A stretch of DNA of 64,000 nucleotides from Protoeuglena noctilucae (taxonomy: Eukaryota). This document shows positions 1,078-61,900 of this stretch, piece by piece. Numbering within the stretch: position 1 is the first letter of the stretch; every line of letters starts with the position of its first letter. The translations under genes and the position numbers were made by a program. Under the pieces are notes generated by a model. The model had not been told where the DNA came from and did not search any database. It worked only from the letters and a program-made list of their open reading frames with translations. The DNA lies in NCBI GenBank assembly GCA_958009085.1, contig OY253685.1:496001-560000 (forward strand), given 5' to 3'.

Positions 1078-4000
1078 ATGCCGCCTTCCAGGGCATCGCC
1101 GGCACCGGGGACGTCCGGCCGGCTCGTTCTCCTGCTGGCCCTCTGCCTGGGCCTCCTGTGCGCCCCCGCCCGGCCCGCCGTCGTGATCGCGAACAGCCAG
1201 CTGCAGACCTGCACGGCCGACGGCTCCGCGGGGGGCCAGGTCACGGGGTGCAAGGAGAAGCTGACGGCGACCGTGGCGGTGGAGAGCGGGGAGACGTTAG
1301 CCACCACGTCCCTGCAGGTGCAGGTGCAGTGCGTGAACCCCGACAAGGGGTCGTGTCCCTGCCAGTGCCAGTACGGCGTCAACGGATGCACATGCAGGTG
1401 AGCTTGACGCTTGTGCCGGGCATGCGTGCGTAGGAGCGGGGCCCACTTGCTTGCTCACCCTTGTAAGCTCAGCCGGCGGGGGCCACAATTGCGTGGGGTT
1501 GCCAGCAACTTGCCTTGACTGTTCCACAGGGACCTGAAGGACTGGCTCACGGTGGAGATATCCAAGGACCCCATAAAGGTTCAATACCCGCTGACGTACA
1601 ACAAGGTGTGTGAAGGGGTTCCCACATCAGGCTGCGTCTGTGCCACACGGGCAGTCAAAGAGAAACACAGCCGCGCCAAAGTGTGGCAGCGTGCCTAAGC
1701 GTCATGCTTAGCGGGCGTGACGTGGCATGTGGGAGAAAACGGCCTCCTTCATTTCATGCAGAGCTACCCCTCTCGCATGTTCGAGGTGTTCAAGCTGACG
1801 GGTACGGGGACGGGCGGCGGGCGCTTCTGCGACGACAGCCCCACCTCTAGTGAGTGCGCCATGACTCAGCCGTCGCCACACTGACAGTGATTCTGCCACT
1901 CTGCCATCAACAGCCCTCTCATGGTACACTAAACCACTTTTAGACGCCGTCAGGACATTTGAAACCCCCCTTGACACCCTCTCTTGTCCCTGCAGGCAGC
2001 CCCACGTGCGGTTGGGCCCACGACGCTCAGGGTCACAACATACCCGACAGTCAGGGATTCTGCTGCACGTGCTCTCTGTCCCAGGGCCTCTCCGAGAGCA
2101 TCGGCATCGGGCCTGGCACACAGAAGGCGAGCATATGTGGTGTGGGGAGTGCAGTCACAAGCAGGCAGCTGCAGGCGCGAAGAGCTGACCTTACGGTGAC
2201 TGTGCGCGCGTCATGGCGTGGCTTGTGCTAAGATACTAAAAGCTGGCACAAACAAAGGTGCATTATTGGCATAGAATGGTGTGTTCATTCGTACATTCGC
2301 TTGCCCTGCAAACGCACTGTGTACGAGTGACCACAACCGACCTGCGACCGTCGTGGTTGCAGAGGGGTGACGTGTCGTGTGGCCTTTTACAGAACGCCCT
2401 GTGGCTGGGGGGCGTGCCAGGCAGCGCCCACTGCCTCGTGTGGGATCAGAAGATGTACAACGGGTACTACATAGGCCAATCGACCCTGGACTTCACCGTT
2501 CATGTCAATGTCAAGACCGACGGCTCCGCACCCACACCAACACCCGGCCCCCAGGCATCGAGTTCGAGCTCGCCGGGACCGGCAGCCGGCAGCGCGACGC
2601 CGGCGTCGCCGAATGCGAGTCCCGGGGCCACTCTGCCGCCGCCGATGACCCCCGCATCGACGGCCGCAGTTAGACGCAGGATGCTCCTGGGCGGCACTAG
2701 TACTACCACTGCTAGCGCCACGCCTGCTGCGGGGTCCACGCCTGCGGCCGGCCCCTCCTCGACCCCCGGCAACCCCGCCAACGCCACCACGTTACTGTGG
2801 GACCTCAGGTGGGGATTGGGTGGAGGGTTGCGGAGTTTGGGGTTGTCAGCCCCAGCCCTTTCCACACCCCCCGCATCTTCCCTCTCTCACACAGCGTGAC
2901 CCCAGCCCTTTCAACACATCCCGCATCTCCCCTCCCTCCCCACGCAGCGTGAGCCCCAGTGCCTCCATCACACACACACACCCACACCCACACACACACT
3001 CCCCACACCTCCCCTGTCCCCACGCAGCGTGAGCCCCAGTGCCTCCATCACGGCCTCCCCCGACGGCACCTTCATCGTAAAGCTCCTGGGCGACCTGTCA
3101 GGCTACACGGACCTGCCCGTGCTGTCAGAGAAGCTGCTGTTGATACCCGCACCGCAGGCGGCGGGCAGCCAGGGCACGGGGGGCAACCCCGTGGTGCAGA
3201 TGATGACCACGGGGATGTGGGACTGGATTCTGGCGGACCAGAACATGGTGTCTGTCGAGTGAGTGAATAGGCGGAGGGGAGGTGGTTCTTGTTGCTTAGT
3301 AGTACTCACTAGTACTGTTTGGTATTCATCACGGTCGTTAAGCCAACTCAGTCGTGTCACGGTCACATCGTGCTGTGTGCTGTGCTGTGTTCTGAGTTGC
3401 GCGTCGAGCATGTCCTGTCAGTTTCAATTCGCTCTCGCACCCGCAGTGGCACCGAGTGCAACAAGATCGGCACCAGTTTCGCGGCATTCCGCGACCAGCC
3501 GGACAGATGCGGCGTTCCCCTGGGCACGTGCCTGTCCAACCAGGTCAGTGACGGTGGCAATCAGCACATGATAAGCCAACAAGGCAAAACGTGAGTGAGT
3601 ACTTAGGTGCAACACACACACACCCCACCACCCCCCACTCGCAGCCAGCCGACGTGTACCACGCCGACCAGGTCCGCCTGGCCAAGTCCCAAGTGCCCCT
3701 CTACCGCCTGCACAAGTACTAGGGATCCTATCCGCAAGACCAGTGGTTCGGCAACACGTGGAACGCCACCAGCCAGGGGTGGTCAATCGTGCTGCCCGTG
3801 CTGGGGAGCCACACCAGCATGGTCTACTTCGAGATGAATGCCGATAACTTGAGGTGAGTGGGATGGGGCATGTGGTGACATTGACTGGATTATCAACAGA
3901 TGAGCGCCGAAAGCTAGAGATGAGTGCGAGTGTATGCAATAAGTGGTGGCGAATGGAGGCCATGCCGTGGGTGGGTCTTTCTCATGCAGTAGCACGATGT

Positions 4001-6515
4001 CAGCGTGGCTCGCATTCACTGTCGTAGCGGAGTTTTTGAGTTGGTTCGTCACCACCTCTACTCCACAACTCAGCATCTCTCTCCCACATTCAACCCCCAC
4101 CCAGATTCGTGACCAACAAGTCCCCCGGCAAGATTGAGTCCGTCTCGGTGTGCCAGTACGGTGGTGTCACCTGCGGGGGATTCGAAGCCATGACGCAGCA
4201 GGGGTACCTGAAGGCCAAAGTGCAGAACACGGGGTCACTGGCGGCGCTCTATCACGTGTCAGTGGTGGACTGCACCCCGGGGATCATGGCCATGCCCGAC
4301 CAGGCGAGTGTGTGAGATGATAGGAAGTGTGGATGGCATGAGCATGATATGTGCAGGGTTTATCGACATGGCCATGCCCGACCAGGCGAGCGACATGGCA
4401 TACAACGATAACAGTGTCGATAGTCCGTAATATAGTACATAATTTACTGTCAACGATCCCAACCTGGTTGCACCCTTACCCCCCCCAGACGCATGCGATT
4501 GATGCCGGTGCTACGTTCGAGTTCTCCTTTGTGATTTACATGACCACGGATGTGGCCAACGCGGGCAACGCCTGCGATGTCATACTCAAGGACGACTTCG
4601 GGAACACCCTCGACATGAAGACGGTGAGATGGTATTGACAAGGGTGGATAATTAGATAGATGTTATGGGTTGGTGTGGATTGAGATGAATGGACAACACC
4701 CTCGACATGAAGACGGTGAGATGGTATTGATAAGGGTGGATAATTAGATAGATGTTATGGGTTGGTGTGGATTGAGATGAATGGACAACACCCTCGACAT
4801 GAAGACGGTGAGATGGTATTAATGGGTGTTGATGTGGGTTGATATGAATGGGCAACACCCTCGACATGAAGACGGCGAGATGAGATTAATAAGGGTGGAT
4901 GTGGAGTGGTAACAATAGTGGGGGCATGGTTGGTGGGCAGTATTGGTGGATATGGGCACTGCCGCCCATGCATCTATGAGTGAACTGTGAGTTCACTTGT
5001 ATGAGAGATGCTTAGCAGTCTCTGCCCCTTTCGTGCTCTGCAGACCAGCTTCTACACCACTGCCACCCAGTACACCAACAGCACCGATTTCAGCGCCAGG
5101 CCGGGCCAGTCGGTGCAGGTGGTGGGGGGGGGAGGCAAGACGTGCAAACAGAAGGCGAGTTTGTTGGGGAGGGGTGGGGGGGGCGAGAGGTGCGATAGAG
5201 AGCTGGGCTTTCTATGTTGCTACAAGATGACTTGCACACCCACGTTACATGCACCAACCCCACACGCTCACGCACCACACACGCACCCGCACCCACACCC
5301 ACACCCATACCCACCCCCACACACCACACACCCACACCCACACACCACCCAACACCCACCCCCACCCTCCCCCACCCGCAGTGCCCTGGCCTGTTCGACA
5401 TCTTCTGCGTCCTGCGCACCGGGTGCTGGCGCAACCTCTTCACCACGCTCATCACGATCGCATTCGTGGTGCTGTTCCTGGTCGCTGTGGTGTTTATGGT
5501 CAGAAAGGGGTGGTGCATCATGCTCATGCCGGTCAAGGGGCGCAAGGGGAAGGGGAAGAAGGTGAGAGGGGGACAGGGTTACTGTTAGCTCTTCCGTGTT
5601 CTCTTTTCGGAGTGACTGACAGCTTCATCTCAGCCGTTTCTGTTATTGCATGCCGCCGCTGCATGTCTCTCCCCTTGTCAGCTCCCACCAACTCCACCAC
5701 TAGTAAACATGGTTCATCTCATTAGTAACAACAACCACCATTGCCCACCCCCCTCCCCCCCGCAGTCCAAAGCAAGGGACCCCAGCCCCACCCCCACCCC
5801 CGACCCGCACCCCACCGCCCCGCCTGCGCCCGCCAAACCCGACCGAGACCAAAACTGGAATCTGACATCCACTCTGGCATGGATGATGGGCAGGAACGCA
5901 CCCGCGAGCAGTGGCCAGCCCAAGCCACACCTGCCGCCCCACCCACCCCATCACGCTCGCCCCACCAGCGCACCCCGCTCTCACGCCGCCAGCCACCGGG
6001 CCCGGCCGGGTGGCGGAAAAGGGCATGGCGCGGGCGGGAATCGACCCCGCGACCGCCGGGCGTCGAGGTATGACCAGGAGGACCCCTGGGGCAGCGACGG
6101 GGGTGGTTACGATAATAACGATGATAACTTTCGCGATAACTATGGTGACTGTGAGGGGGTGGATGAGGTGACGGTGGATATGGGGGATGGATACGGGAGC
6201 GAGGGTGGGAGGAATGGGAGGGATCGGCGGGGTGGGGGGAGGCGGGGGGAGGGCACTGGCACTGGCACCAACACTGGTGTTGCTCTGACACGGACCGCGT
6301 TTCTGGCACTGATGCGGTCGGTAGGGCAAAGCGGTGGTGGGGATGCGGGTAATACTCGGGGTGATAGGGCAGACAGGAGTGGTGGGGGTAGGCATGGGCC
6401 GGGTGGTGGACGTGCTGTGACGAGGGGCCGGCGTGGGGGCACAGCACGAACGGCATACCTGACGGGTCGGGAGGAGCTGCCGCACTCGCGGTGGTCTGCG
6501 GGGGACAGCGTGTGA
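1078..6515 (+). CDS. HAP2: HAP2/GCS1 gamete fusogen (class II fusion protein), about 14 exons
   Basis: Signal peptide (RLVLLLALCLGLLC), VIANSQLQTC...CKEKL, CPCQC...CTCRDL, FCDD...PTCGW...IPDSQGFCCTC, GSAHCL, ECNKIGTSFAAFRDQPDRCGVPLGTCLSNQ, domain III (SPGKIESV...FEAMTQQG), stem CPGLFDIFCVLRTGCW, one TM helix at ~5445-5510, then a basic/Gly-Arg-rich tail ending at 6515. Confidence 0.93.
4603..4885 (+). repeat. Tandem repeat (92, 92, 67 bp spacing) whose unit contains the HAP2 exon end and splice donor
   Basis: aacaccctcgacatgaagacgg(t/c)gagatg occurs at 4603, 4695, 4787 and 4854. Confidence 0.95.
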
Positions 6516-7028
6516 TGGGAAATACTGTGGTAGTTGAAAAGTATTTGGTATCATGAGGCCTGATGATGCGACAAGACCGGGTCTTCTGTTTATCTGTTTA
6601 CATATCTGCGATACCAGCGGTAGCCGTGGGCCAGCTTGCGCCTAAGTCCCGTTTAGCGTTCTGCCACAGTTGCTGGCTGATGCCGCGTTTCTTTTGTTCC
6701 GTTCCACCAGCCTCTTGTGGCCTTATGTGTAGCGTCACCTTTTACACCTTTTCGCTGGGGATAAGGTCCTTTGAAGTAATACGACTTGCATGTTTCAATA
6801 GCAACTGACACGCGCTCCGTGCTGCCGCCACAATATGCGCCAAACCATGACAACCATGCTAGCTCCCTCTTCTGTGCCAAGCAAACCACAGCATCTTACA
6901 GTGGCAATGACACCAGCCACTCTCTCTCTCTCTCACACACACACATAGACAGTCACACGCATCCACCCACACCCTTCCACCACCACCGCCCCACCCCACC
7001 CCACCCCACCACTCCCCCCAAACCCCCC

Positions 7029-10000
7029 TCAGTCATCCTCATCCCCCCCCACATCCATATCCACATCCTCGCTCTCCCCACCCCCCTCCTCCGACCCACT
7101 CCCACTCGAGTCCAACACCACATCCACCTCATCCTCCGTTTCCTCCCCCTCACCGTCCGACACCACATAGCTCTCCATGTACCGACGCGGGCGCTTCGCA
7201 GCACGTTTGCCGCGACCCTTCGCACCCGCACCACCGCCCGCACCCGCACTGCCACCCCCACCCTTGCGCCCCGCCCCACCCCCCGCCTTGCGTGCTCGCG
7301 TGCCCACCCCACCCCCCGCCCTCCTCTTGGTGTCGAACTCCCCATCGCTGTCATCGTCAAAGTCCGCGTCTGGATCGTCTTTATCGACATCGTTATCCGC
7401 CCCCCCCACGTCCACCTCGTCGTCCCACTCCCCCGCCACCACCAACTCTGACGGGTTCGTCTGAAACACCTTGTCGTCGTCCTCCTCCTTGCAAGAACTG
7501 CGAAGATGGGGGGGGGGGGGGGGAGAGGGATAAGGGGATCAATTTAATATTTCGAATTCAATAATATAGCCACGAAAATCATCAGTAAAAAATATGGTTA
7601 AGGACAGTGAATAACAAATTCATCGACAGTATATCCACAATCAATCTCCCCCCCCCCACATCTCGTCTCACCGGTAAATGTCGTCACACACGAACCCCTC
7701 CCTCTCACACCATACACATCAACACACTCTATATCAATTAACAATCACACTATCCAATCACCCCCACATCTCCTCACCGGTAGATATTGTCGCACACGAA
7801 CCTCTCCCTCTCCGCCCTCTCCGCGATCTCCTGCGACACCACGCGCCACTTGCGGCATCGGGTGCACTCGGCCCAGTGATGCCGCACCTCCGCGGCCTCC
7901 CTGCGACGCACGGCCGCCTGCGCGCGGGCCTGGCGCCTGGGGGGGGATGGGGGGGGGATACAGGGGGGTTGGTAAAGGGATTAAGTCAATTGATGGGTCT
8001 GGCGCTTGGGGGGGAGGGGTTGGGGTTAAGGGATCGAATCGGTGCTGTGCTGGGTAAGGGATTAAGTCAAACAGTGGGCCTGGTGCCTTGGGGGGGGGTG
8101 GGGAGGGTGGGGGTGCATGGAAAGGGATTGAGTCGGTGCGAGGTGAGGGATGGAGTAAAAATCCATCCATCCACCCATTGTATCTATGGGAGTAAAACAC
8201 GCTCAGTTGCGCTTCCCACAACCCCACCCACTCTGCTACCCCCACACCCACACCCACACTGCTACCCAAACCCACACCCCCACCCCCACCCCTCACTTGA
8301 GTTCCCCCAGCTGTTCGTCCGTCATCCCCGCGACCCTCTGCTCCTCCTCCTCGGCCTCCCTCCCCAATCGAACAATCTCATCATCTGCGTCAATCATCTC
8401 CCCCACACGAGCACGCACGCGCTCGGCCGCTCGGATGTAGAAGGGGTCACGCAGGGCGCCCCCGCGCTCGGGGTCGTGGTACTGGGAGAAGAGAGGGGGG
8501 CGAGATTGGATTTATTTTAGTTATTATCGTGTATCTATATTAATTGTAACATTCAACTGCAATATTTATATAAAATAAAATAGAATAGTAAGTATGATAT
8601 TTCCATCATTCTCACCTTCTTGGTGTTGCACACCATCTTGTCCCAGTCCTGCAGGAACGCGGCTATGCTGGTGTAGCTGTCGGCCTTCCTGACGCACCTC
8701 CGCCTCATGCTGTCGATCAGCACCCAGTCCTGCTTAGGGACCTTGGACTGCGGGAGCGGGTGAATATGATCATCAGTCGTCATTAGTATATATTATATAC
8801 TATCATATATAATATAATATAATATATTGCAAATTACAAGTACAACGATAGTACCAGTGGTTGGCAGTAACAGTCATATAACAGCCGTACTAATACCAGC
8901 ATCGCAGCGTTCCCAACCACCCTTACAATAACAAACAAGCAATTACAACCACCACCACCACCACCACCACCACCACCATTAACCATTAACCACAATCACA
9001 GTTACTAACCTGGTAATCCTCGATGCTCTTCAGCAGCCCTTCGGACAGGAACCCGGCCACCAGGCTCTCGTGGTACTCGGGAACGGGCGTGCTCAGTTCC
9101 GGATCCGACACCACCCTTTGCAGCAGCGACAGCAGAGCACGATTGAAGGCGTCCCTGGCCGGTCTTGGTACCCCCGCGTCCCTCGCTTTGCGTATTGGGG
9201 CCTGCCTGGCTGGTCGTGACTGGGCTTCCTGCCGCTCCTCGAACTTGCGCTTCCGGACGTCGTGAAATTGACCCTCGGCGTCGGCGTTTTCGTCCTCGGG
9301 GTCCGACTCGCCGGAGGGGGCGGAGGAGGGGGCGGACGAGTCGGAGAGGGAGCGGGCGGCGTCCTGTGTAGGGAGGAGGGGGAAAAGGGTGTGAATTGGA
9401 GTTTGAATGGGGTGGTGGTGGGGGTAGTAGTGGTGGTGCGGGTGGCAGTGGGGGCGGGGGAGTCGGAGAGGGAGCAGGCGGCGTCCTGAATGGTGAAGGG
9501 AGAGGGGTGTCAGTGAATGGGTGTGGGGGTGAGAGTTGTGACGTGAAGGGGGTGGCAGTGAGGGTGACAGTGGGAGTGGGGATGGTGGTGGGGGTGGCAG
9601 TGGGGGTGAGGCCGAGCGCACAGCAACGTTAGCACCAAACAGCCCCTCAACTCCCACCTCTCCGCCTCTACCAACCATCCAAACACACCACAACCACAAA
9701 CCATAGTCACTACCCACCACCACCACACCCCTCACCTCCTCATCGCTCCCCTGCGCCTTGGCCGCCCTCCTCCCCCCCTTCGCCGCCCTCGCCCCCCTCG
9801 CCCCACCCCCACCCTTCGCCGCCGCAGCAGCAGCTTTGACCTCCTTCATCCCCCTTCTCTGCCACTCCATTTCCATGGGATTCAATGGCCTGACGCCCGG
9901 CCTGTCTGGGCCCCACGGCAAAATGCGGATGGCCCCGGTGCGGGGGTCGGGCTTGCGGTTGTCGGGCCAGAAGGCCTGGGGGTGGGGTGGGAATTTGAAA

Positions 10001-13000
10001 TGTAAGTGTCAGGGACTTGAAATGTTAGGGTGAGGGTGTGGGTGTTGTTTAAGTGGGGGCGGGTGTGGCTTCGATCTCGATGGGGTTGGTGATCATTACC
10101 AATGCATACATCAACAATAGTCATTGATAATAACAGTAATAGTAATCACTCCTTCACCTTGATGGCTTCGATCTCGATGGGGTTGGTAATGATGATTACC
10201 AGTGCACATGTCAGTAACAGTAACAATAACAACGATTGCAATAACTACATCTTCACCTTGATGGCTTCGATCTCGATGGGGTTGGTAATGATGATTACCA
10301 GTGCACATGTCAGTAACAGTAACAATAACAACGATTGCAATAACTACATCTTCACCTTGATGGCTTCGATCTCGATGGGGTTGGTGATGATAATCTCCTC
10401 CTCCCTCACCCTCGACTGCCCATCCACCGTCTCACGAATACGCATCAGGCGACGCAGGCGATGGGTGACCTGGGGATGATTAGAGATGGTTGATTATAGT
10501 GTAACAGTTTTATAATAATTACATATGGCAGCATATGTAATTATAATAAAACCATATGCTGCCACATGTAATTACGAGTGATGTTGTGAGTGCGCATGAT
10601 GATAACGCGGCGGAGGCACTGCCTCCACCATCCAAGTCATATCCATGCCACCAATAACGATACTATTAGTAGTAATAATAATTCCTATATCACCACCCAC
10701 CACCCCTCACCTTGGCAGCCGACGCCTCTCCCCTCTTCACCTCCGCCTCCACCATCGCCACATTAATACACTCACCAATTATAGTATTTTTAACACTAAA
10801 CGTAACAAAACTAGTATTATCACTTTCAACTCTCACCTTGGCAGCGGATGCTTCTCTCCTCTTCACCTCCGCCTCCACCATCGCCACCCCCGTGTCTTTC
10901 AGCAGACCCTCCTTTCGCATCGATTCCAGCGCAGCCAATTCCGCCTCCTCCTCTCTCCGCAAACGATCCCCCGCACTCTCACCACCCGCACCCGCACCCG
11001 CACCGCCACCCTTGCCACCCTTGCCATCCCCCGCACTCTTATCGCCCGCACCCGCACCCTTGCCACCCCCGCCCCCACTCCCGCCCGTCTTGCCACCCTC
11101 CTGTCCCTTCCCAGCCCCACTCTCTGCCCCACCCTTGCTCTTCCCACCACCCTGCTTCGCACGCCCACCCCCATCCCCCGCCTTGCCACTCCTTTGATCC
11201 TTCCCACCCCCACTGCCACCTCCCTTACCACCCTTATCTTTGCCCCCTTTCGCAGCCCCCTTTGCTGCCTTATCCACTCCTCCCTTGGCTGTGCTGGTGG
11301 ATGGGGTGGCGCCGCTGGGGGCGGGCTGTGGGGGTGGGGAGGGTGGTGATATGAGATGGCGTGAGAGGTGGAGGGTGATGAGGTGTAATGCAAATGGGAT
11401 GTTGCAATTGTTGGGAACAGCGCACCTGCCCCACCCGCCCCATCACCCATCTCACCATCTTCCCGATCTTCCCCCCACCCACACCAACACCACACCCCCC
11501 ACCTCCCTCTTCCCGCTTATCCCCTCATCAGCACCCACACCCCACCCCATCACCCCCACTCATCCACTCACCCTCTTCCCGCTCACCCCCGATTTCCTCC
11601 CCGTCCGCACCGACGTCCCCCCACTCTGCCCCGCCTCCCCCTCCCCCTCTCCCCCCCCCCTCCTCCCCACCTCCACCTGCCGGCGCCACCCTCAGCGCCG
11701 CCCTCTGCTTTTCAAACACCGCCCGCGCCGCCACCGCGTTGCCCTCCACCCGCTGCCGCGCCGATTTCAAATTCAAACGGAAGTGGGCGGCCTTGGAGGT
11801 GTCCCCCTCCTCGAACCGCAGGTTGTTGATCTCCTTGAGAAAGGCGACCATCTGCCACCGACCGTACTGCAGCACGATGTCCAATGGGACATCGCGGGTG
11901 AAGAGCGACGCTTCCTTGCGCAACAGCTCCCGCAGCTGAGCCATGGATTTGCTGCGGTAGTCGGCCTCAGTACCAGCCACTGCGATATGGGTGAAGTGAG
12001 GAGAGGGGGGGTGAGTGAGTGAGTGACGAGTGAGTGGGTGACCAAACGAGTGTGTGAGAGTGAGTGGGTGGGTGAGTGATGAGTGCGAGTGAGTGAGTGA
12101 GTGAGTGAGAGTGTGACTCAGACCCATCACTCCCACACCCCCACCTCCTCGCCCGACCATCTATCGATCGCACATCATAGACAATCACACCGCACCCCAC
12201 TTCCACACCCCAGCCCACCCCCTCACCCGGCCCCGCCTTGAACCGGGCCGCCGCCCCCCTCAGCGCCTGCTCGTGCGGCACGAACGCGTACCCCAGTCCT
12301 TTTCCGGTGGGGTCGCCGGCGGGATTCGATAGGTCGACCGTGCCCGCGCCCATCCGGGCGTTGACGAAGGCCGAGGTGGTGGACCAGGGCGTCAGCCAGC
12401 AGTAGAGTTTCAAGGCGTCGAGTGCACGCATGGCGCGGTCGTCCTGTGAGGGGGGTGAGGGAGAGAGAGGTGAGAGGTGAGATAGATGGGATGTGAGATG
12501 AGAGGGGTGTGATGTGAGCCAGCAGTAGAGTTTCAAAGCGTCCAACGCACGCATGGCACGATCGTCCTGGGTGTGTGAGAGGGAGGGGTGGTGAGGGTGG
12601 ATGATGTGAGATGGATGGGAGGTGAGGGAGGTGAGAGGTGAGGGAGGGTGATGTGCAGCATTACGACGTGAGAGGGGTTGTTTAGGATGAGGGCCTACCA
12701 GCACCGCTGAAGTACCAAATTATAACATTATCATTATAACATCACACCTATCACCCCCTCACCCCCGGGTACAGCACCGCGATGGTAGTACTACCTATCG
12801 CATGGCATCGTACTACTCGCAACACCACGCCATTGTCATCCACCCCTCACCCCGGGATAGAGCACCGCGATGGTGACAATCACAAGCAATTGGTATTACC
12901 AATCACCTCAATAACCCCACCAATCACTCCTCACCCCGGGATAGAGCACCGCGATGGTCCTCCTCATGGCCTCCAGGTAGCTGGGCTGGTAGTGCTGCAG

Positions 13001-19000: not shown

Positions 19001-19421
19001 CCTCCGTAGAACCCTACACCTCGTTTGGACTATGAAGCAGCGTTGCGCAACGTGCAGGCCCTCTCACCTGCTCCTTCGGCGGCAGTTTCCGCATCGCCTC
19101 CCTGATGGCCTCGGCCAAGTCTTGCCGCAGCGCCTCCGGGAGCTCGTCCTTCTCAAGCGGCACATCGCCTTTGTCCTCTTCGTTTTCATCGTCGCTCGCG
19201 GTACGCTTTGGCGGCTCAAAAATGACGTTGTGGACGTCATCTTGGACGTCATCGTCGTCCTGCGCGGGGGCGGACGACGGGGGCCGTCGCGCGGGGGCGA
19301 TGGCGCGCCTTCACGCGAGGTGGTGCAATGACCAGTTTCCTCTCGCATTCAGCAAGGGTCATGTGGGCTCCCGCGTCCAAGATAGCTCGCGCACCTTGGA
19401 CGGCACCATGGACGGCACCAT
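7029..19421 (-). CDS. TAF1: TFIID subunit 1 (TAF1/HAF) with DUF3591 core, one divergent bromodomain and a C-terminal CW-type zinc finger
   Basis: DUF3591 motifs: VEYLEERPPLLQDDGMGARLVTFYQKR (~14620-14710), AFETNLFECP...DFLLVR...LRELTGTVFVGQEHP (~13920-14090), LTPWSTTSAFV...GDPTGKGLGYAFV (~12280-12400), AGTEADYRSKSMAQLRELL...GRWQMV (~11840-11980). Bromodomain exons at ~9010-9160, 8616-8748 and 8300-8482. Acidic tail ends at 7029. Start at 19421 inferred from splice logic. Confidence 0.88.
10068..10395 (-). repeat. 99-bp tandem repeat containing a TAF1 exon end and donor site
   Basis: cttcaccttgatggcttcgatctcgatggggttggt occurs at 10152, 10251 and 10350, with a partial copy at ~10068. Confidence 0.95.
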
Positions 19422-19877
19422 GGATGCTCCCAGCGTCGCGACAGCCGGCCGGGCCCCGCTCGAGACGACCGCCTCAGATCATCTGCTTTGTCATGCACAA
19501 GATGCGCGATCCACACCCCGCCCCTGCGTCGCGAGGGCCACCGGGGCACGCCGGGTGGACGGAACCGTCAAGAACGGCGCCTCTGGGGTCGCGATGCGCG
19601 GCGTGGACCGGGCACCCTTGTCTTCAGCGCCACGCAATGGAACAGCAGCGCTCAGCGGGAAGCGAGAAGGCCCAGAGGGTCGAGTCAGCTGGCTGGCAAG
19701 GTCTGGCACGTGGGAATTCACCCAGATCGGCGTCGCATGGCAGGCCATTGCTATATCTCTGCCTCTCACTGGGCATAAGGACTCCCGCGCGTGGGTCGCG
19801 CACCTCCCCTCGTCGCCCAGGGGCTTCTTGATTCCAGACAGGAGGCAGGGACAGAGCCGTGCGAGCTCGAGGTGGAG
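19422..19877. promoter_or_regulatory. Putative bidirectional promoter between TAF1 and SEC12
   Basis: The two inferred start codons are head-to-head and about 456 bp apart. No specific motif identified. Confidence 0.4.
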
Positions 19878-26197: not shown

Positions 26198-26203
26198 GCA
26201 ATC

Positions 26204-38764: not shown

Positions 38765-40984
<2,220 letters not shown>

Positions 40985-47932: not shown

Positions 47933-50900
47933 ATGCCACTCGGGGATAGGGACGATTACGGCGACGCCAAGTATGTGGGATTGGAACTGGGAGGCGTCGC
48001 AAGCTTGGCGGAATCTCTCAAGGTGGGTGCAGCCCCCGGCCCCCACAAGCTGGGGAATGGTTGCGAGTTAAGATCGGTATGCATCCGGACCGCCACCACT
48101 CGCATCGCGCAGACGCATGGGCAGCAGGGCTTCGACTTCGTCCTCGCTCCCCTCGCGGGGGAGCGCGCCACCCGGGCGCCGGACCTGCACCCCGGCGTGC
48201 CGCATCTGCCTCCATCGTACGAGTCGGACCTGTCGCTGAGGTGCGGAGTCCATTCGATGCCCCGCGACCTCGGACAGGTGGCGCCGCAGCGGACGCTCTC
48301 TCGCTCCGCATCTCCCGCAGCTCATCTTCCTGGACGACCCACGTCGTCGGCGTGATCAGTGACTGGATCGATCTGGACAGCGAGGACGCGGAGCTGCGGG
48401 CCCGGAGCGCCGAGGCTCTGACGACCGGTGCGTGCGCGGCCTGAGTTGCGCAACCGCCACCCTCCCCGATTGCATGGGCACCCTGGCGCGCACGTGACCG
48501 GCTGCTGGGTGGACGATTGCGACGTTGTGCTTTGCGCAGAGGTCAACTGGGCGCATCACCTGTCGCTCAATGCCGTGGTGGTGCCAGGACCCAGGGCTGG
48601 GCGCCACGCCAACCTGGCACAGCGCCTGAGTCAGCTGGTGCGATCGGTGCACAGCACGTCCGTGTGGGTGCGGTACAGGCTGACGCACGGCGACGCCAGC
48701 TGCAAGGTAAGGCGCACCACAGCTGACTTAAAGGAGCTGCACCGCTAGCACAGCCTCACCTGTGCGTACGCCAGTGTTCCTGCAGGAAGCCCTGTCTTCG
48801 TGGCTCTCCCTCAAAGCGCTCTGTGAGCACAACAAACGCCTCGGGGTGACCCTGGGTGAGGCGCGATGGAACGCAGCTTGTGTGAACACTCGAGGTCTCA
48901 CACGGGCAGTCGCCTCGTGTGCTACCCTGCCAGGGCACGCCGTTTGAGTGCACATCCGACCCAACGGCATCGCTGACCGTGCGCAGAGATCCAGAGAGAG
49001 ACGGTGAGCGAGGGCGTGCGTGCGGCGTGGGCGGGGGAGCCCGTGAAGGCGGTGATCGTGACGGACGACGCATTCCTCACCAACAACCAGGGATTCCCCG
49101 TCTTGCCCAAGGTGAACGGAGTGACGTGGTTGACAGTGTCAACCAGCGGTTTCTTTGGCTCTAAGAGGACAATGTCCTCTTAGATGGCCCCTACGTTTAC
49201 CGCCTTGTGTGCTCATCACCTTGTGTGGTGCCGCCCACCTCCCAATGCCCGAGTTCATCTCACCCACACAAAAGACTACCCTTTATATTATGTGAATCCA
49301 CCATGATGCGCAGGCGCACCAGGGTCTTTTGGAGAGCGCCTTCAGGCACGGGGTGCAAGTGGTGTTGCAGCCGTCGGCGAGCGGGGCGGTCGTGGTGGAG
49401 GGTGACGAGGTGCTGGACCACTCCTCAAAGCTCAAGCACAAGTTTGAGTACCTGTCCTTTCTGTTCAGGTGCATGTCACGAATATCACGACTAGCGTCAT
49501 TCGTCAGCGCTGGAAGCATTTGTGTTTGCAACTGCTGTAGTGCATCCCCATACATGCATCTATATGCATTCAACCCCACACATGCAATCCAACCCCATGC
49601 ATCCCACCCCATTCCTCCTCCCAGGCGCATGCCCACCCCGGACGGTTTGGAGCTCGCCAGTATGGGCTATCGGGACTATCTGCAGATCCCATTGCAGCCC
49701 CTCCAAGATAACCTCGAGTCATGCACCTACGAGACGTTTGAGAGAGACGCGATCAAGTACTCCAGTTATGAGAGCGCTATGGCTCTGGCATTTCAAGACA
49801 TGGCGGTGGCGCGGGGGGGTGTCAAGGGAGCTGCCGAGGCGAGCGGATACTTGCGGGAGTGTGGAGTGGTGGCTGTGATCGATAACTCTCAATAACAATC
49901 AATAGCTTTCTGTGACTGTTACCCAAGCCCCGGGTGGGGTGCGTATGCCGACCTTGCGTGAGCCCCGACGCATGGTACAGCGCAGCGCAGCACAGTGTCA
50001 GCTCAAAATTTCGTGACAACTTTTCCTCCCCATCTCACGCGCAGGTCACGCTGCAGGTGATGGTGGTGGGCGCGGGGCGGGGTCCGCTGGTGCGCGCGGC
50101 ATTGAGCGCGTCCAGCAGCACAGGCATCAACGTCGTCGTCTGGGCCGTCGAGAAGAACGCCAACGCTTTCGTAACACTACGGCACCTAACTAAGATTGGG
50201 GGGTGGGGCGAGCGGGTGAGGGCGGTTGCAACACTGCACTACCGTGCTTCTTCAGCATAACTCTGTTCACCATTGTACAGTGCACTGGTTGTCCATAGCT
50301 GTGCACTGGTTGTGTATCGCATTTTATATGTCAATATCCTCGTCCCCTTTCAGGTAAACCTGGTGTTTGGCGACATGCGCACGTGGGAGGCCCCTGTGAA
50401 GGCGGACGTGATGGTGTCAGAACTGCTGGGGTCCTTCGGGTGCAACGAGCTGTCGCCAGAGTGCCTGGACGGGGCGCAGGAGTACCTGGCGGAGGGCGGC
50501 ATATGCATCCCGCAGAAATACACCAACTACCTGCAGCCCGTGGCGACGTCCAAGGCGAGTGAGGGTAGGCCAATCACCTGCAGTCCGTCGCGACCTCCAA
50601 GGCGAGCAATACAGGGGCTCTTACTCTAGCTGGCTTCAAGTCATCTGCAGGGGTGGCTGGCTGGATGACTCATTTTGCCAATTGCAGTTGACAGTGGGTA
50701 ATGTGTTCAGTCGCATGTGGTATTTACAGGTGTTCCAGAACCTGAGTGACATGGCCAATCGCGAGTGACATATATGTTTACAATTGAAATACCCGCGACC
50801 CTCGCAGGTGTTTCAGGACTTGAGTGACATAGGCGACCGCAAGCACTTCGAGACCCCCGCCGTGGTCAAGCTGCACCGCTTCTACCCCCTGGGCCTTGCC

Positions 50901-51635
50901 GCTGAGGGCATGACCTTCTCGCACCCCAACCGCACGCCCTGTCCCGACAACATGAGGGAGCTGCACCTGTCGTTCGCGAGGGGGGCAGATGACCCGCCCT
51001 CCACCGTGCACGGGCTGGCGGGCTACTTCCGCACCTGGCTGTACCAGGTGAGGGTGGTTAGTTAAGGGTGTGGATGTATTGAGTGACGTGTGTGGCTTGT
51101 GGCTGTACTGGGTGAGGAAGGGTGTGGCTGCCTCCTGTTCGTTTCATAACACGCACTCCCTCGCTCTGCCACTCGTCCTCTCCATGACCCCATCCCTGCT
51201 CAATCCTCTCTGCAGGACGTGATGCTCAGCACGCATCCCGAGGACCACACCCCGGGCATGTACTCGTGGTTCCCCATCTTCTTCCCGCTGCAGCACCCAG
51301 TCCGCGTCGACCCAGGTGAGATGATCATGAGTAATGTACCATAGCCTGCATGGATGTTGGATGTCTTTCCACTGCAGCACCCGGTACGCGTCGACCCAGG
51401 TGAGGCCGCCATGGCTGTGGCAGAAGATACACAGCGCAGTCGATCTATACAAGCACAATCGCTTGTATGGAAGCAGTACAAGCGTCCCCTCCGCTGTCCT
51501 GCAGGGGCCTCGATCGAGGTCCACATGTGGAGGTGCGTGGACAAGCACAAGGTCTGGTACGAATGGGCGCTTACGGGACCGCAAACGACGCACCTGCACA
51601 ACGCCAAGGGGCGCAGCTTCGTCGTCGGTCTCTGA
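47933..51635 (+). CDS. PRMT5: Protein arginine N-methyltransferase 5 (SKB1)
   Basis: [31 protein letters not shown], motif [18 protein letters not shown], double-E loop [38 protein letters not shown]...HNAKGRS. Confidence 0.96.
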
Positions 51636-54900: not shown

Positions 54901-57900
54901 GGGTACCTGAGGAGGCGCACGGCGGGGCCCAGGATGCGGCCGGGGCAGGACCGGTTCGAGTCGGGGCTGTATCGGGCACTGAAGGTGAGAGAAAGGTTTG
55001 AAGCACATTTGAGCTGGGGCTTTGTAATGACAACACTCCCCACTCCATTTCACAAGCCCCTAACAGCCTTCTGCCCCGAACATCCAAGACCCCCCACCCA
55101 CCCCACCCACTCCCCTTCATTCCAGGGCAAATCCCGCGAGGGCATCCCCCTCAGATCGGAGCACCCCGAAGAGGCCATCGACCGTTTGCGCCCCCGCCCC
55201 ACACGCGCCCTCATCACACCCGCACCCTCCCATGCACCCCGCCCCTCCGTCTGGCGCGACCGACCCCTGGGGATTTCCCTGGATTGGGACGCTGCCAGAG
55301 ACGGAGTGTCGCTGCGACAGGGCCGGGGGGTGGTGGCGTTTGCGAGGGGGGCGGGGCACGGGCCCGGTGTCGAGGTGAGGGGTGACATGACATGCGGGGG
55401 TGATGTGACATGTATTGGCCTTCATTGATGCGTTAGATATGAGTGAGTGGCCTGTCTTGATCTTGCTGAATCGTTCAATCTGACTTCCACCACGCTTTGT
55501 GCAGCACGTCACCCTCTCCTGCCCACCCACTATCCACGCATATGTATCACTAACGTCACCCCGCCCAATCCACCCCTATGTAACAATCAACTACCGCTCC
55601 CCGCAGGACCCCTCCGCGCTGCGCCGCGCCCGGGAGTGGCCCGGCCCGGCCACCTACGCCGTCGACCACCGCCCCACCGAGCCAACCCCGCACGCGCACA
55701 CTATGCCCCGAGCATCCAGGAACCTCGATACCTCATCCGAACGAGTGATAAAAGACGGAGACTACCTGGAGATCGATGCCGCGACCGCGAGGGACGCTGT
55801 GGGGCCCAGGCACGCGGCGCATTACAACATGAGTCAGGCATTAGTCAGGCCTGAGCCAGGGAATGTCACCGGGTCGCCGGCGGTGTGGGTGCCGCCGAGT
55901 GCGGACGTGGGGGACGCCGTGAGGTGGCGGGGGCCGCGGGTGAGGGGCGTGGAGTGGTGGGAGAGGGGTGGAGAGATGGCGGTAGCGGTGGCGGTGGTGG
56001 GGTGCAGCAAGGGCAGTGACAGGCAGGGCTGCCCATGTGCCAACACATAGATAGTGACTAAGCACACATTGCTGCCCCATCTCAACACCCCGCCTCTGCT
56101 CAACCATCGCCCCACCCCACACCACTCTACCCCTCACCCCACCCCACCCCCTTTCCCCCCCAGCCCCCCGACCTCTCCCGCATGCCCGGCCGCCCCAGCT
56201 CCCCTCCCATCGACATCCACGAGGCCCGGAGGGGCCCAGGCGCATACGACACCGCAACTGCGACCACAGACACCGCCCCGGCTGCTGACTTCGCCTCCGC
56301 TCCCCCCCGCCCATCGCTGTTCGCTGCGAGCACAGAGGGGGATGTGTTGGCGCTGGAGGTGGCGGCGGCGGTGGATGGGGTGCGGCCGCGGGCGACGGCG
56401 GCGGTGATTGCGGGGGAGCATGGGACAGTGAGGGACGTGAGGTGAGGAGAGGAGTGGGTGGCAAGTGAGGTGGTAGGTGGGGAGTGGAGGGGATATGCAT
56501 GTGGCAGTGAGGGATGCCAGGTGAGGGGAGGAGAAGGGAGTGGGAGAGGGGGTGGTGATGGCGGGGGAGCACGCGACTGTGTGGGACGTGAGGTGAGGGG
56601 AGGAGAAGGGAGATGCATGCCGCAGTGAGGGAGGGGAGATGGAGGGGTAAAGTGCAGCAAAGACCTCCTGCCGCACCTGTGCTCTAGAATCCTCCTTGAT
56701 CCTCCCCCTGCCCCGACTCGAACCCGCGACGCAGGGAGAAGGAGGCTTGGGACCTGGACTACGCGCCCCGCTTCACCGCTGTCGACCCCTCCCCCACACC
56801 GCCGCCCGACATGGCTGCGATGCTGGGGCGGGCCCCGCTGTTCCCCTCCGCTATCACTCGGCCCTCAGAGCTGGCTCAGGACGCGTCGTTGCTCGCGCTG
56901 GCCGAGAGGTGAGGGACGGGCGAGGGGCGGTGGGGGTGGCGTGGGAGTGACATGAGAGACATGTCATAAGAGTGACATGGGGAAGTGATGGGTCACAATA
57001 ACATGGCATGCTTAGACATGACACTGCATGCTCAGGGATAGCACAGCTGATATTTAATACTGCAATCGTGTCAACTTACCATTTGATATCCCCATGCAGG
57101 ATCAAGGGCGGCGCTGTGGATTTCTCTGCAATGCTGGGCCGCCCCGATGCCGCGGCAGAGGCAGCCAAGCGGGGGGGCGATGTCCTGGACATCGACGTCG
57201 CGGCTGCCGACCGAGCCGTGCGCAAGGTGCGGGGGTGGCGGGGGTGGTGGGGGTGAGGTGGGGATAGCTGAGGGTTGGGGCTGTAGAGTTAGTGGGAGTG
57301 GAAGTATGGTGGGGTAGCTCAGGGGCGGGGCTGTGCATAAGTTGGGGGTGGAAGGGTGCACGTGGAATGTGGCTGGTGATAGCAGACAAGTGGCTTTCCA
57401 AGTCACCCCATCCTTTCGCTCTCTCCCCTCCGCAGCGAGCCCCCGAGGCCCCCCGCATGTCCTTAGGAGCAGACAGGTCGTTGCTATTGGGAGACGCGAC
57501 AACAGCAGCGGTGCGCGATGCCGATGCCGAGTGGCGCCCGATTGGGTACGCGAACGCAAGCGACGGGTTGCGAGTTACACGAATAGATGCGGGGGGCAGT
57601 CTTTTGGAATTTGACCGCCTCGGCCCGGGTCATGAAACGTCAGACTGGCGCGAGGACTGGCGGGGGTATGCGGCGCCAGAAACGGGGGCGGCGGTGGGGC
57701 GGCGGGGCCCGGAGGTGGACTTCGGGGCGGCGGCGGGGCGGGAGCGGCCGCGGGTGGGGGCGCCTGCTGTGAGGGACAGCTGGGAGGGGCAGCGGCTGGC
57801 GCTGCGTGTGCACCGGGATGCGTGGGGTGGGGACGGGGCGGGGCGGGGCAAGAAGGCGTGGGAGCAGCCGATGGGTGAGTGGGGAGGGGGGTTGAGTGAT

Positions 57901-58691
57901 GGGTGCATGGGAGCAATGGATGGGTGAGTGGAGGGGACTGAGTGATGGGTGCATCATGAGTGCGGCTGATGCGCAAAGTTAATGAGGTTATCGTGGGTGG
58001 GAGGTGCGGCAGCAGCACCTTCCCCCCTTCCCCACCTCACCTCACACCCCGCCCCACCCCAACCCTCACCCCCCACCTCTCACCACCCACCCCCCCTCAC
58101 CCCCCAACCCTTGACCCCTCTCCCCCGCTTGCAGCCCTGGCCCCTGGCCGTGACGCCCTTACAGCGACCGACGCCGACACTGACGGGGATCGATTGCTTT
58201 TGAACATCCCAGCAGAGATGCACGGCCTGTTATCGCAACACAAGGCAGCGCCACGCGCAGTGTTTGCCAGGTCTGCCGCCCACGCCGTGACGGTATGGGA
58301 AGAGACACAGAGAGCGAGACCAATGTTAGTTGATGAGAATGTTAGAGATGGGGCTGGGGCTGGGGGTGCGGGGGGTGGGGTGGGGGAGGGTGCGGTGGTG
58401 AATGCGGTGCATGCGGTGGGGGCGGGGGCGGTGAGGGGGTTGCAGGTCGGGCCGGCGAGTGCGGGGGCGGCGGCGCTTGCGGGAATGCCCGAGGCTGCCC
58501 GCGCTCCGCTGGTGTCGCGGCGGGTGCGGGCTGTGGTGGAGGCGGCGCGACGGCAGGCCGAGCGCCGCCGGCATGCGGTTCTGGCGCCGGCGCCGGCGCC
58601 AGTTCCGGTGTCAGAACTGTCAGAATGGGAGGGGGGAGAAAGCGTGAGGCAGCCAGGGGGGGTGTTCGCACGGCGCTTCATGGTTGATTGA
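51951..58691 (+). CDS. Large multi-exon protein with PGPG/GPGxY (SHIPPO/ODF3/STPG-like) repeats, possibly axonemal
   Basis: Recurrent motifs GPGRY, PGPATY, GPGAYD, RAPKWSF, RAPQFSFGK, RAPAWSFG, VDF(G/S)xxxGR and 'AVRPR'. Exon structure approximate and could be more than one gene. Confidence 0.5.
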
Positions 58692-58959
58692 GACGGCGTG
58701 AGTTAGATTAGTCATGCGATTACGTGTGTAAAGCACGCTTGGCTGCATGGCGTGTCGTGTGAATGACAGGCAGGGTTCGATGCATACTTTGAGCTTCAAC
58801 AGCCATGCATGCATACAAACAGAAACATTTGTCAGCCAGCCTCGCGCTCGCAGCAGCCATTGCCAACCCAGAACTCTCCTCCAATCCCACCCTAATCCAT
58901 CCCTTGTCATCTCTCCATCCCCACCACACCACACCTCCACCCCTCTCCTCATCTTTCCC

Positions 58960-61900
58960 TCACGCGCCTTCCGCCCCACCCCCGCCACCCCCACCACCAC
59001 CACCACCCCCATCGCCCCGCCCCTCACCGCCCCTTCCCCTGTACTTCTTGTGCCTATTCCCAAACCCACCCTGCCCCCCAACCCTCCCCCGGCCATCCAC
59101 ACGCTGCCATCTGTCATCGCCCCCACCCCCACCGCCACCCCCGCCCCTTTCGCCAGCCCTCCACTCCTGCCCCTGCCTCCCGCCTTGCCCCCGCCCCCGC
59201 CCTCGCCCCGGCCCATCCCTATCCCTGCTGTACCTACCACCACCCCTCCCACGCCCACCCATCTGCCCCTCATATCCCCCACCCATCCCTTGCCCCTGCT
59301 CCATTCCCTGCCCACCCCACGCCTGCCCCATCTCTTGCCCAGCACTGTACCCATACCCCTCATATCCCTCACCATGCCCCACCCCATGCCACTCGTACCC
59401 CCAACCAGGGTGGTAACCTGGGTACCCAGCACTGCCATAGTCATGCCCCGTGTATCCACGCCCGTCATACCCTTGCTGCGCCCACCCCTGCTCACCACCC
59501 CCTTGTCCGTAATCCATCACAGTACCAGTAGCATGCTGGTGTTGGTGATCGCCATGAGACATCCCCGCAGCTTGCGGGGCCGCCCCAGCCACATGCCCTT
59601 GGCTAGCCATGGTGACTGGGTTAGTCGTGCCTGCACTGGGAATGGACTCCGGCCCCGGGGGCCACCGCTGCCCGGGCTGACTGGGCTGGCTTTGACCGGG
59701 TTGGTGGTTTTGGGGGGTTGCCGTCACATGCGCACTCGTCACATGCGCACCCGCTCCCGCATGCCCTGCGGGGTGCTGGGATGAACCCCAGTGCTGAGGT
59801 GGGCCCAGCGGCGCTGTGCGGGGAGCGGGGGCGTCGGGAGCAGCGCCGGGCTGCCGGGCAGTGCGGGGTGACGTGCCCAAAGGCGCCGACTGCTGGGCTG
59901 GGTGGTAGCCGGCGGGGTGGCGGCCGCGGCTGGGGTGCCCCGAATCTCCCGGTAAGTCCCTCCGCGTCGCCTCTGCGCGCCCGGCATGGCCGGCGGCCTG
60001 CCCCGCACCCCCGCCACAACCACTACAGCCACGACCACCACCGCTGCGCCCGTCGACCTCCCGTGGTGCGCCCGGGACTGGGTAATGCCCGCGATCGGAT
60101 TGCGACGATAACTGCGACGGCCCCGGCGGCGTGGCCGGGCCTGCGTGCGGCAATTGCTCGCCCGCCGCCCCATGCCCCGCCCGGTCACGCTGTGGCATGT
60201 GCTGGTGACTGGCGGGTGCTGCCCCGGCCTCGGACCCGCCCGCGCGCATCCCCGGCGATACCGCCGCGCTCTCCGGACCCACCGGCGCGCCCCTGTGCCC
60301 CTCGGGCCCCGTCCTTCCCAGCCAGGATGGCAGCACAGGGCCCGGCACCGGCATCGCACCCCATCCCTGCCCCTGGCTGCCCCCGGCGCCGCCATGCAAG
60401 CCGGGAGCATACACCGGAGCGGGCCCGCCCTGCCGCCCATGCACCCCCGATTGCACCGCCAGCCCCTGCCCCTCCCCACCCATCGCACCACCCGTCGCCA
60501 CCCCACCACTGCCTTGCGACCCCTGCAGCGCTCCGCTGGCCCCGAGGGCCTGCGCGGAGCCAGGTAAAGCCCCGAAGTGGGGCAAACCCACACCCTGCGC
60601 CCCGCCCCACGCCCCCACCCCCGCATGCCCCATTGCCGCCACTGACGCCCCATCTTGCGACCCACCCCAAGCAACCGGGACAGCCCCGGGCGGCAGCGGA
60701 TCCCGCACAGCGCCCATCGGGACCTGTGGCATCCGCCCCTGCCCCTCCAGGCCCTCACTGCGGTGCCCGGGCACACCCACCGCCGCCGCTGTTGCGGTGT
60801 CAGGTGCGGGTGCGTGGATGTCGGTCGCAACTGCAGCTGCACCCTGACTCGATTGGCCCAACAGCTCCTCGACGCTCGGCTGTTTCAGCACAGCTGCCAG
60901 GTCTTCGCTTTCGTAAAGTAGCAGCACCGGTTGCAGCCGACCATTCACGCACTTTGCCACCACAGGCTCCCACCCGCCCAGCACCTGCGACAGATAGAGG
61001 GGGTGGGGAGCGGCAAGTGGTTTAGTGAATTATTCAGAAAGATGAGTACTGTGATTAATGCGAGTGCGCCATATATGCATGGGTGCCTTGTTATTAGTAA
61101 ACCGCAATATAATTTTGATAAAATGTTAATGTAAATGACATCATTCCCTCGCCTGCACGGAGGTGTCGTCGAACTTTGCCCACCCGTGCGTGGGATGGTG
61201 GCAGAAGGCGAGGTAATGCGAACCGTAGAAGAGAACCATCGAACGGAGGCGGTAGGTGGTCTCGAAGCGGGACTGCAAGAATAATAACATATCAATATGT
61301 ATTGTAATATATTATTAACAATTAACTTTCAACGCAATTTCATAATAAGTATGGTATACTTACTATAAAAGGCTGAAAATATCAGTATTACAACTAGTTC
61401 ATTATTGTCACACATGATACGCGTCGCGCGCCGCTCACCAGCACTTTGCGGAAGAGGGAGGTGGGCGTGAGGGTCTGGGGGATGCTGTCGAACACGGCCT
61501 CAATGTCGGACGCGGATGCCTGGGCCGTGTGCCACCCAATCAGCACGTTGAAGACGTGGGGGGCGCGGCACAGGGCCTGGGGGGGCGATGAGGGAGAGAT
61601 GGAGTTGTTGTTTGTGTTTTGTCGTTCGTATAGACCATAAATATGACTACTATGCATGGTGATTATAACGACTCCGCAAAGCAAATGCTGCGACGGTATT
61701 GTATTGGCTAGTCTTCTTGCATGGTGTGGTAGAACTAACAACCATGCCTCGCCACCTCCAATCATCGCACTCACCTACTGCATGGCTTGCACGTGACCGC
61801 ACAACCCCCACTGCACCCCCCCACCCCCTCACCTGCTGCATGGCTTGCACGTGACCGCACCCCCCCACGTCGCAGGATGCCATTGATTCCATGGAAAGGC

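Follow-up and report, generated by a model that had tools for sequence, protein, structure and literature searches.

The stretch analysed here is 64,000 nt of the genome of Protoeuglena noctilucae (contig OY253685.1, positions 496,001-560,000; hereafter the window, with positions counted from its first letter), and its introns repeatedly carry short copies of their own exon–intron junctions. The assembly comprises 26.3 Mb in 27 contigs; 92% of sampled words of the genome are present in marine metagenomes, and the host is treated as a marine green alga. Genes in the window were modelled by hand, yielding 98 introns and 196 junctions in 12 genes. Eleven models had usable frames, with 10 fully open and HAP2 containing one internal stop; an FHA-like gene was left out (its model was not open) and two introns of an NRAMP-like gene were mis-set. 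Pfam profiles support HAP2-GCS1, PRMT5 and UPF0014 (FetB), as well as DUF3591 in a gene that we take to be TAF1 from this domain. The names NRAMP, SHIPPO/ODF3, TTLL, BCNT, SEC12 and USP are presumptive, chosen from the appearance of the sequences only; the SEC12-like and USP-like names lack Pfam confirmation and the SHIPPO/ODF3-like gene had no Pfam match.

A copy was called where the exon-side score reached at least 9 and the match was anchored at the junction, with each junction scanned against its own intron and the chance level taken from other introns. By this measure, 24 of the 196 window junctions have an exon-side copy (0.3 expected), affecting 21 of the 98 introns, with two doubtful calls in TAF1 introns 5 and 12. 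After filtering, junctions with copies numbered 11 in TAF1, three in HAP2 and three in PRMT5, and no junction copies were found among the 26 introns of the starch-branching-enzyme (SBE), TTLL and BCNT genes. An earlier note on this DNA had listed pairs of junctions and copies by approximate position; all 21 pairs checked match at 14-20 of 20 bases and within 4 nt of their offsets, and the two arrays that it had reported (4603-4900 and 10152-10391) were recovered by both Tandem Repeats Finder and a repeat scan. Three further copies were absent from its list (TAF1 14303-14328, PRMT5 50576-50606 and NRAMP-like 23322-23343).

Short-read contigs from a culture run (X1) and two wild metagenomes (X5 and X6) were compared with window positions 2700-21200. 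A single X1 contig spans 10356-21200 with no other letters and no gaps (a repeat at 11991-12154 was skipped), although X1 may be the assembly's own sample. Most TAF1 copies, the HAP2 pair at 4285/4367 and the SEC12-like copies are spanned by X5 and X6 contigs, each piece showing 0-2 differences. Where copies are bridged, contigs from the wild and from culture agree; contigs break at the two near-perfect arrays, and these arrays and the HAP2 copy at 2937 are unbridged, leaving copy number there unconfirmed. The claim that the copies are no assembly artefact therefore holds for the bridged ones, because contigs from the culture and from two wild metagenomes carry the diverged copies in cis, almost letter for letter. 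As an observation in its own right, each 0.7-4 kb piece of the wild metagenome contigs from 2016, with introns counted, has 0-2 letters that disagree with the assembly, and present-day diversity looks very low for a marine alga.

Frequency across the genome was measured in 100 stretches of 10 kb (1 Mb) from 22 contigs, using our own gene finder, retrained on its sample predictions. The gene finder recovered 91 of 95 hand-modelled window introns, a figure that is not fully independent, as the first training round was seeded on the same introns. Of 2,002 predicted introns, 1,949 were usable, the other 53 being dropped for short flanks, length above 1,500 nt or N. Overall, 92 of the 1,949 introns carry a copy (about 3.5 expected by chance), in 39 of the 100 stretches, with 64 copies at donors (3.0 expected) and 36 at acceptors (0.5 expected); copy frequency in the window is about fourfold that of the sample.

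The copies are direct, abut the junction and lie in the junction's own intron: only 5 of 3,323 occurred on the wrong side and 5 of 3,898 were inverted, and the signal dies away over the first 45 nt of the exon. Whole-exon duplication followed by decay is ruled out by the wrong-side count, and the placement and inversion tests exclude insertions templated on exon sequence elsewhere nearby or on the opposite strand. Among local repeats in the sample, 105 pairs link a junction to the adjoining intron, compared with 22 pairs, in 20 introns, that are confined to the interior. The enrichment over intron interiors that the earlier note had proposed to check is thus present, with junction duplicates in 92 introns versus interior ones in 20 where geometry alone predicts 1.1-1.7 to 1, in a comparison where the complexity filter and two-sided decay both hide interior repeats. 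The junction copies are real, local and genome-wide.

Consistent with the suggestion that they lengthen introns, copies were found in 75 of 424 introns of at least 200 nt versus 4 of 1,143 introns below 150 nt. Host introns are also AT-richer and simple (GC 0.58 versus 0.635), and their copy-free neighbours are likewise long (median, 186 versus 127 nt); weaker codon bias was not seen in host genes (GC at third codon positions, 0.88 versus 0.86; p = 0.12). Window introns in general are strongly strand-asymmetric, G/T-rich past the donor and C/A-rich ahead of the acceptor, and often contain short microsatellites (for example, 5155-5381, 11980-12226 and 61962-62088).

Anatomy and codon content were examined in the nearest copy at 100 junctions (79 from the genome sample and 21 from the window), after 21 of 100 genome and 3 of 24 window junctions had been removed by the score, length or complexity filter. 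Median lengths are 25 nt for the exon part of a copy and 88 nt for the period. On the intron side, the ungapped match mostly extends no further than 10 nt, most often to +5 at donors and to -3 at acceptors. Random breakpoints predict an exon part above half its possible range in half of the pairs; this was seen in 3 of 99. A single copy is present at 76 of the 100 junctions and more than one at 24. Simple cases on the forward strand include the acceptor copy of HAP2 intron 5 (2937-2971; real site 3017-3051), with an identical exon part and an older, decayed unit at 2850-2938; the GC donor copy of HAP2 intron 9 (4367-4390; real 4285-4308), which is identical, is bridged in X1 and X5 and has a spacer unrelated to the sequence after the copy; and the donor copy of FetB/UPF0014 intron 3 (27246-27283; real 27202-27239), with a spacer of 6 nt. 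On the reverse strand, the NRAMP-like gene, whose name is presumptive, has a donor copy at 23322-23343 (real 23410-23431). Shorter or multiple copies occur in SEC12-like intron 3 (two short donor copies, 20870-20951, forward strand; real 20811-20835), in TAF1 intron 18 (two short acceptor copies below the score threshold, 7985-8095, reverse strand; real near 7927-7945) and, on the forward strand, in intron 5 of the presumed SHIPPO/ODF3-like gene (two to three donor copies, 56497-56639; real 56403-56454); this gene also contains a weak donor copy below threshold at 57859-57954 with a 46-49 nt period.

Donor and acceptor copies occur together in nine introns, giving a nested look of exon edge, intron and exon edge. 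In PRMT5 intron 9 (50576-50752, forward strand), for example, a donor copy (50576-50606) and an acceptor copy (50727-50752) enclose a 128-nt inner intron, with the real sites at 50529-50559 and 50805-50830. Six sample introns have both types versus 0.8 expected, or 2.6 among introns of at least 200 nt (p = 0.036). Splice dinucleotides (GT/GC or AG) are kept in 88 of 100 nearest and 34 of 43 farther copies. Introns of the GC-AG type are unusually frequent in this genome, with GC as the first dinucleotide of 14 among the 98 introns modelled by hand and of 393 among the 2,002 predicted, and some copies show GC where the real donor is GT, as in TAF1 intron 4 (16697-16722, reverse strand; real 16771-16796).

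A minority of copies are true tandem repeats. HAP2 intron 10 holds its real donor and three copies at 4603-4900 (forward strand), an array of 92-nt units that are 99% identical, plus one older unit, and TAF1 intron 14 holds its real donor and two copies at 10152-10391 (reverse strand) in 99-nt units, also 99% identical, with one synonymous exon difference common to both copies. Arrays of three to five junction copies also occur in the genome sample, starting at position 3401 of stretch L098, 6111 of L058 and 597 of L099. Two unit types alternate in the L058 array, and the three copies of the L099 array have identical exon parts with unlike spacers.

RNA run X9 bears on which of the duplicated sites is used. 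One contig joins 9362 to 9735 and so removes the acceptor copy of TAF1 intron 15 (9450-9488, reverse strand; real 9328-9366). For another, the match stops at 13427 (donor) and 14247 (acceptor), the outer sites of TAF1 intron 9, whose GC donor copy (13332-13366, reverse strand; real 13426-13460) continues past an in-frame 6-nt indel, and of intron 7, which has an acceptor copy and an older one (14303-14423, reverse strand; real 14224-14249) and is among the additions to the earlier list. Outer sites are thus seen or implied at three junctions and inner sites at none, in contigs of a single run, which drop rare isoforms. These results fit the proposal that the outermost site keeps the mRNA intact and lend no support to the companion idea of decoy or alternative splice sites: inner-site use was not seen in the RNA contigs and would cause a frameshift or meet a stop in 83 of 100 cases.

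The differences between exon and copy carry a codon signature. A copy made from its own chromatid would be expected to decay at all sites, with the exon changing at most synonymously, and so to give a ratio of 0-fold to 4-fold degenerate differences of at least 0.5. Observed differences were 60 of 1,744 0-fold sites (3.4%) and 75 of 449 4-fold sites (16.7%), a ratio of 0.21 (bootstrap confidence interval (CI), 0.14-0.30 over 41 loci; p = 2e-7 versus at least 0.5), and totalled 119 synonymous and 72 non-synonymous changes. The ratio is 0.18 in the window alone and 0.21 in the genome sample alone, and wrong frames invert the signal (2.1 and 2.9). The bias persists among G<->C differences only (4-fold, 27/403 versus 0-fold, 9/925; p = 5e-4) and among changes from exon G/C to copy A/T (29/403 versus 27/925; p = 6.5e-4), and AT-biased mutation is therefore no explanation. 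Comparison of first and second copies gave 34/366 0-fold and 17/86 4-fold differences, a ratio of 0.47 where 1 is expected if both are neutral, from a small sample that includes messy arrays.

Individual cases in TAF1, all on the reverse strand, illustrate the bias. All six differences are synonymous over the 50 exon bases of the acceptor copy of intron 10 (12517-12569; real 12394-12446; bridged in X1 and X6), as are three of three in the acceptor copy of intron 9 (13173-13212; real 13061-13100), three of three in its GC donor copy, and two of two exon differences in the donor copy of intron 6 (15322-15372; real 15428-15478), which has lost its GT. Intron 10 also has two donor copies (12757-12874; real 12925-12958), the near one identical and the far one with three differences, all synonymous by eye. 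Mixed cases are the donor copies of intron 13 (10706-10761; real 10832-10887; 51 exon bases; bridged in X1, X5 and X6), with three synonymous and one non-synonymous differences, and of intron 19 (7667-7706; real 7773-7812), with three and two. Outside TAF1, the donor copy of PRMT5 intron 11 (51364-51404, forward strand; real 51280-51320) has four of four synonymous, and that of USP-like intron 5 (61770-61802, reverse strand; real 61828-61860) contains one nonsense difference. Exon and copy look as if they had diverged under protein-level constraint.

The spacers that follow the real site and the copy tell a different story from the exon parts. They are related, aligning better than with neighbour introns of the same gene in 56 of 76 cases (p = 2e-7), and their alignment scores resemble simulations with 35-45% substitution plus indels; only 4 of 86 are near-identical. 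Under plain duplication, a copy that had decayed by 3.4% should be accompanied by spacers about 7% apart. A mobile spacer found no support in two spacer searches, and spacers resemble their own intron over its neighbours.

We consider it about an even chance (roughly 0.5) that most copies are leftovers of imprecise, exon-anchored, homology-guided repair between diverged alleles of the same gene. Between such alleles, exons would still pair and introns barely would. After a break in an intron of allele A, repair would anchor in the exon, because only exons still pair, copy through the intron of allele B and overshoot into the other exon by about 25 nt. Instead of annealing to A's exon, this newly copied end would be joined to the untrimmed stub of A's intron. 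The product would read exon A, splice site, a stub of about 60 nt of intron A, exon edge B, splice site B and intron B, a gain of about 90 nt per event, and it would survive because the outer site keeps the mRNA intact. The existing repeat could then expand into near-perfect arrays by ordinary unequal exchange. Template-guided repair finished by end joining is also what the one-sided invasion model describes. One cause would account for three facts, namely the codon bias, the diverged spacers and the short exon parts: exon and copy would have spent most of their time apart as working alleles, with the spacers being the introns of two alleles. From the observed anatomy, synonymous bias, related but far-diverged spacers and outer-site use at three junctions, we infer the allelic donor, the repair pathway and the timing.

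Several points weigh against allelic repair. The two alleles would have to differ by about 10-15% at 4-fold sites and by about 40% in introns, a species-level distance, and such partners would have to have been met repeatedly to build arrays in which several spacers are unlike. No donor allele came to light: the X1, X5 and X6 contigs over 2700-21200 are near-identical and show no second haplotype. Nor did metagenome contigs reveal a close relative (26 loci matched a PRMT5 exon query, the best at 73% amino-acid identity and therefore too distant to polarise synonymous changes). Spacer similarity shows a weak correlation with 0-fold divergence (rho -0.24, p = 0.04) and none with synonymous divergence, which is opposite to the simplest expectation of an allelic model, and the bias is equal for pairs with similar (0.21) and unrelated (0.18) spacers. 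Non-CpG G/C sites alone give a ratio of 0.35, not significantly below 0.5 (p = 0.14), and the farthest array copies look neutral (0.63). Donor and acceptor copies in the same intron are not diverged to a common extent (rho 0.10, n = 9); of 100 copies, 6 extend beyond an indel, whose length is a multiple of 3 in two. Finally, codon frames in the genome sample rest on a self-written gene finder, with its recovery of 91 of 95 hand-modelled introns.

The closest rival, which we regard as unlikely, combines old tandem duplication on the same chromatid with later inter-allelic gene conversion that refreshed the copy or replaced the real exon end, in tracts stopping at the splice motif. This explanation still requires diverged alleles and dispenses with hyper-diverged allelic introns. 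It accounts for the synonymous bias, for related but diverged spacers with a sharp border at the motif, for arrays with near-identical exon copies and differing spacers (for example, L099) and for a bias that is alike whether spacers are similar or unrelated. However, early conversion should have homogenised the spacers, conversion from the same allele would be expected to give a ratio of 0.5-1 rather than 0.21, and few copies have a decayed longer exon part (6 of 100 continue past an indel). Conversion on about 25 nt of homology is also expected to be inefficient. Taken jointly, the two explanations that need diverged alleles, allelic repair and duplication with conversion, are likely to contain the answer.

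Somewhat less likely again as the general cause is plain tandem duplication by slippage or unequal sister exchange, with selection for an intact outer site, neutral decay and low-complexity spacers that mutate much faster than the exon copy. This is the idea of the earlier note and the classical picture of such repeats. Plain duplication certainly made the near-perfect arrays, with their units at 4603-4820 and 10152-10391, and is right for a minority of cases; the four near-identical spacers, the neutral look of the farthest copies, the drop in spacer similarity with 0-fold divergence and the AT-richer, simple host introns all agree with it. Yet it predicts a ratio of at least 0.5, well outside the CI observed, requires spacers to change about sixfold faster than the adjacent neutral copy, and predicts uniform exon parts, which are rejected. 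What stands of the earlier proposal is that the copies are local and real. Duplication followed by decay as the main cause misfits most cases, because divergence is largely synonymous, the spacers exceed the exon copy by far in divergence and the exon part is much shorter than random breakpoints give.

It is improbable that selection maintains the copies because they are translated on occasion, whether as alternative ends, as micro-exons or as what is left of mutually exclusive duplicated exons. Their divergence does resemble protein-level constraint, and most keep their splice dinucleotides, but inner-site use would usually break the frame, inspected copies have no flanking second splice site by eye, and whole-exon remnants should also appear on the other exon side, where they scarcely do; RNA contigs show outer sites only, though contigs lose rare isoforms. 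More improbable still is a mobile or ectopic insert as spacer, with exon edge and motif as a long target-site duplication. Some spacers do look unrelated to the post-copy sequence despite an identical exon copy, and a 9-nt direct repeat flanks one copy (near 4362-4399); however, two spacers beside identical copies had no second genome match (2/2 searched, by a search that skips simple repeats), spacers are closer to their own intron than to neighbouring introns, and the synonymous bias would be unexplained. An assembly chimera of two haplotypes would give synonymous-biased copies by merging, but has next to no chance, as both copies stand in cis in independent contigs, at 0-2 differences for each piece, and this refutes it for the bridged copies in 3017-21200.

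Junction copies themselves are known; their synonymous bias is what is new here. Lancelet 'mirages' are direct copies of donor or acceptor junctions in the adjacent intron, documented so far one gene at a time (PMC3087553, PMC3902484). In lancelet BflGb6, mirage units are 81-100% identical along the unit and vary in number between haplotypes, by a mechanism called unclear (PMC3087553). The copies described here resemble mirages in being direct, in occurring at either end of the intron, in mostly keeping AG/GT and in forming some multi-unit arrays, and where mirages leave normal splicing undisturbed, outer sites were seen or implied here at three junctions. Unlike mirages as so far described, they occur in a green alga and come with a genome-wide measure (about 5% of introns), are single at most junctions (76/100), are alike only in exon edge and motif, with spacers about 35-45% diverged, and show a synonymous bias. 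The whole-unit similarity of mirages was not seen here (4/86 near-identical spacers), except in the arrays at 4603 and 10152; as it is missing in most cases, we regard the copies as a variant of the mirage and not a plain member. No publication on such junction copies in algae, or on synonymous bias in them, was found in a search limited to listings and the starts of abstracts, with few subscription papers.

In Chlamydomonas reinhardtii, polymerase theta is required for templated repair of breaks, and local duplications are among the scars that result (PMC8604939). The likeness to allelic repair lies in template-guided repair finished by end joining, with local duplications beside the break; that work concerns synthetic single-stranded templates at nuclease cuts, in contrast to the natural allelic template and exon-edge bias proposed here. 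The Rogers model, as cited in PMC3087553, derives intron gain from tandem duplication of an AG/GT proto-splice site. There, too, duplication with splice signals adds intronic sequence, but the new intron takes one site from each copy, whereas here copies lie inside existing introns and outer sites keep the frame and appear in RNA. Introners or transposons with target-site duplication differ in forming a dispersed family, as the two spacers searched were single-locus and spacers resemble their own intron. In human germline minisatellites, inter-allelic, conversion-like mutation moves repeat units between alleles. That process works on arrays already made of like units; in the present case, the initial repeat would itself have to form between alleles with introns that barely align.

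HAP2 itself contains an in-frame TAG at 3720-3722 (forward strand), in the middle of an otherwise open model of 990 codons. The HAP2-GCS1 profile resumes past it (positions 362-415 of 515), and a wild X5 contig carries the same letters. All 11 modelled window genes stop with TGA, as do 161 of 239 predicted genes in the sample, where 56 stops are TAG. UAG recoding as the cause is unsupported, with two in-frame TAG codons in internal exons of 60 stretches (at a low penalty) and TAG at 56 of 239 predicted terminal stops. The HAP2 TAG is probably a nonsense allele of this gamete fusogen, which would fit a clonal lineage, or it may mark a missed micro-intron.

Two other loci in the window stand apart from the junction copies. 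A gene that we take to be a FetA-like ABC ATPase and the FetB/UPF0014 gene lie head to tail, 7 nt apart, at 25244-27962 (forward strand), a bacterial-like pair that is intron-bearing and possibly forms one transcript. The SBE frame extends into a C-terminal tail of about 640 codons (31560-33478, reverse strand) with 15-, 10- and 8-residue repeats and a His-rich stretch. The best single-match named proteins for an SBE exon are from chlorophytes (75-79%) and land plants (71-77%), with no close named relative.

Across the genome, junction copies are present in roughly 1 in 20 introns, rising to roughly 1 in 6 among longer introns, and at this frequency they constitute a genuine means by which introns grow in a compact alga. 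They resemble coding sequence with intact splice signals and can be expected to mislead gene predictors. The synonymous-bias test is applicable to any genome with such repeats and separates sequences that were duplicated and are decaying from those taken from a working allele. A little more tentatively than for the origin of most copies, junction copies may be fossils of other alleles, left where recombinational repair has repeatedly dropped the partner's exon edge and intron into an intron, in lineages with alleles so far apart that pairing is confined to exons. If an allelic origin is true, one haploid assembly holds evidence of past recombination between distant haplotypes, intron length is linked to population diversity, and sex between such haplotypes would have the side effect of making introns longer, by about 90 nt at a time. 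The copies would then record past allelic diversity in a genome that is now near-clonal in look, with an internal stop in HAP2, and the same route could explain the mirages of highly polymorphic lancelets.

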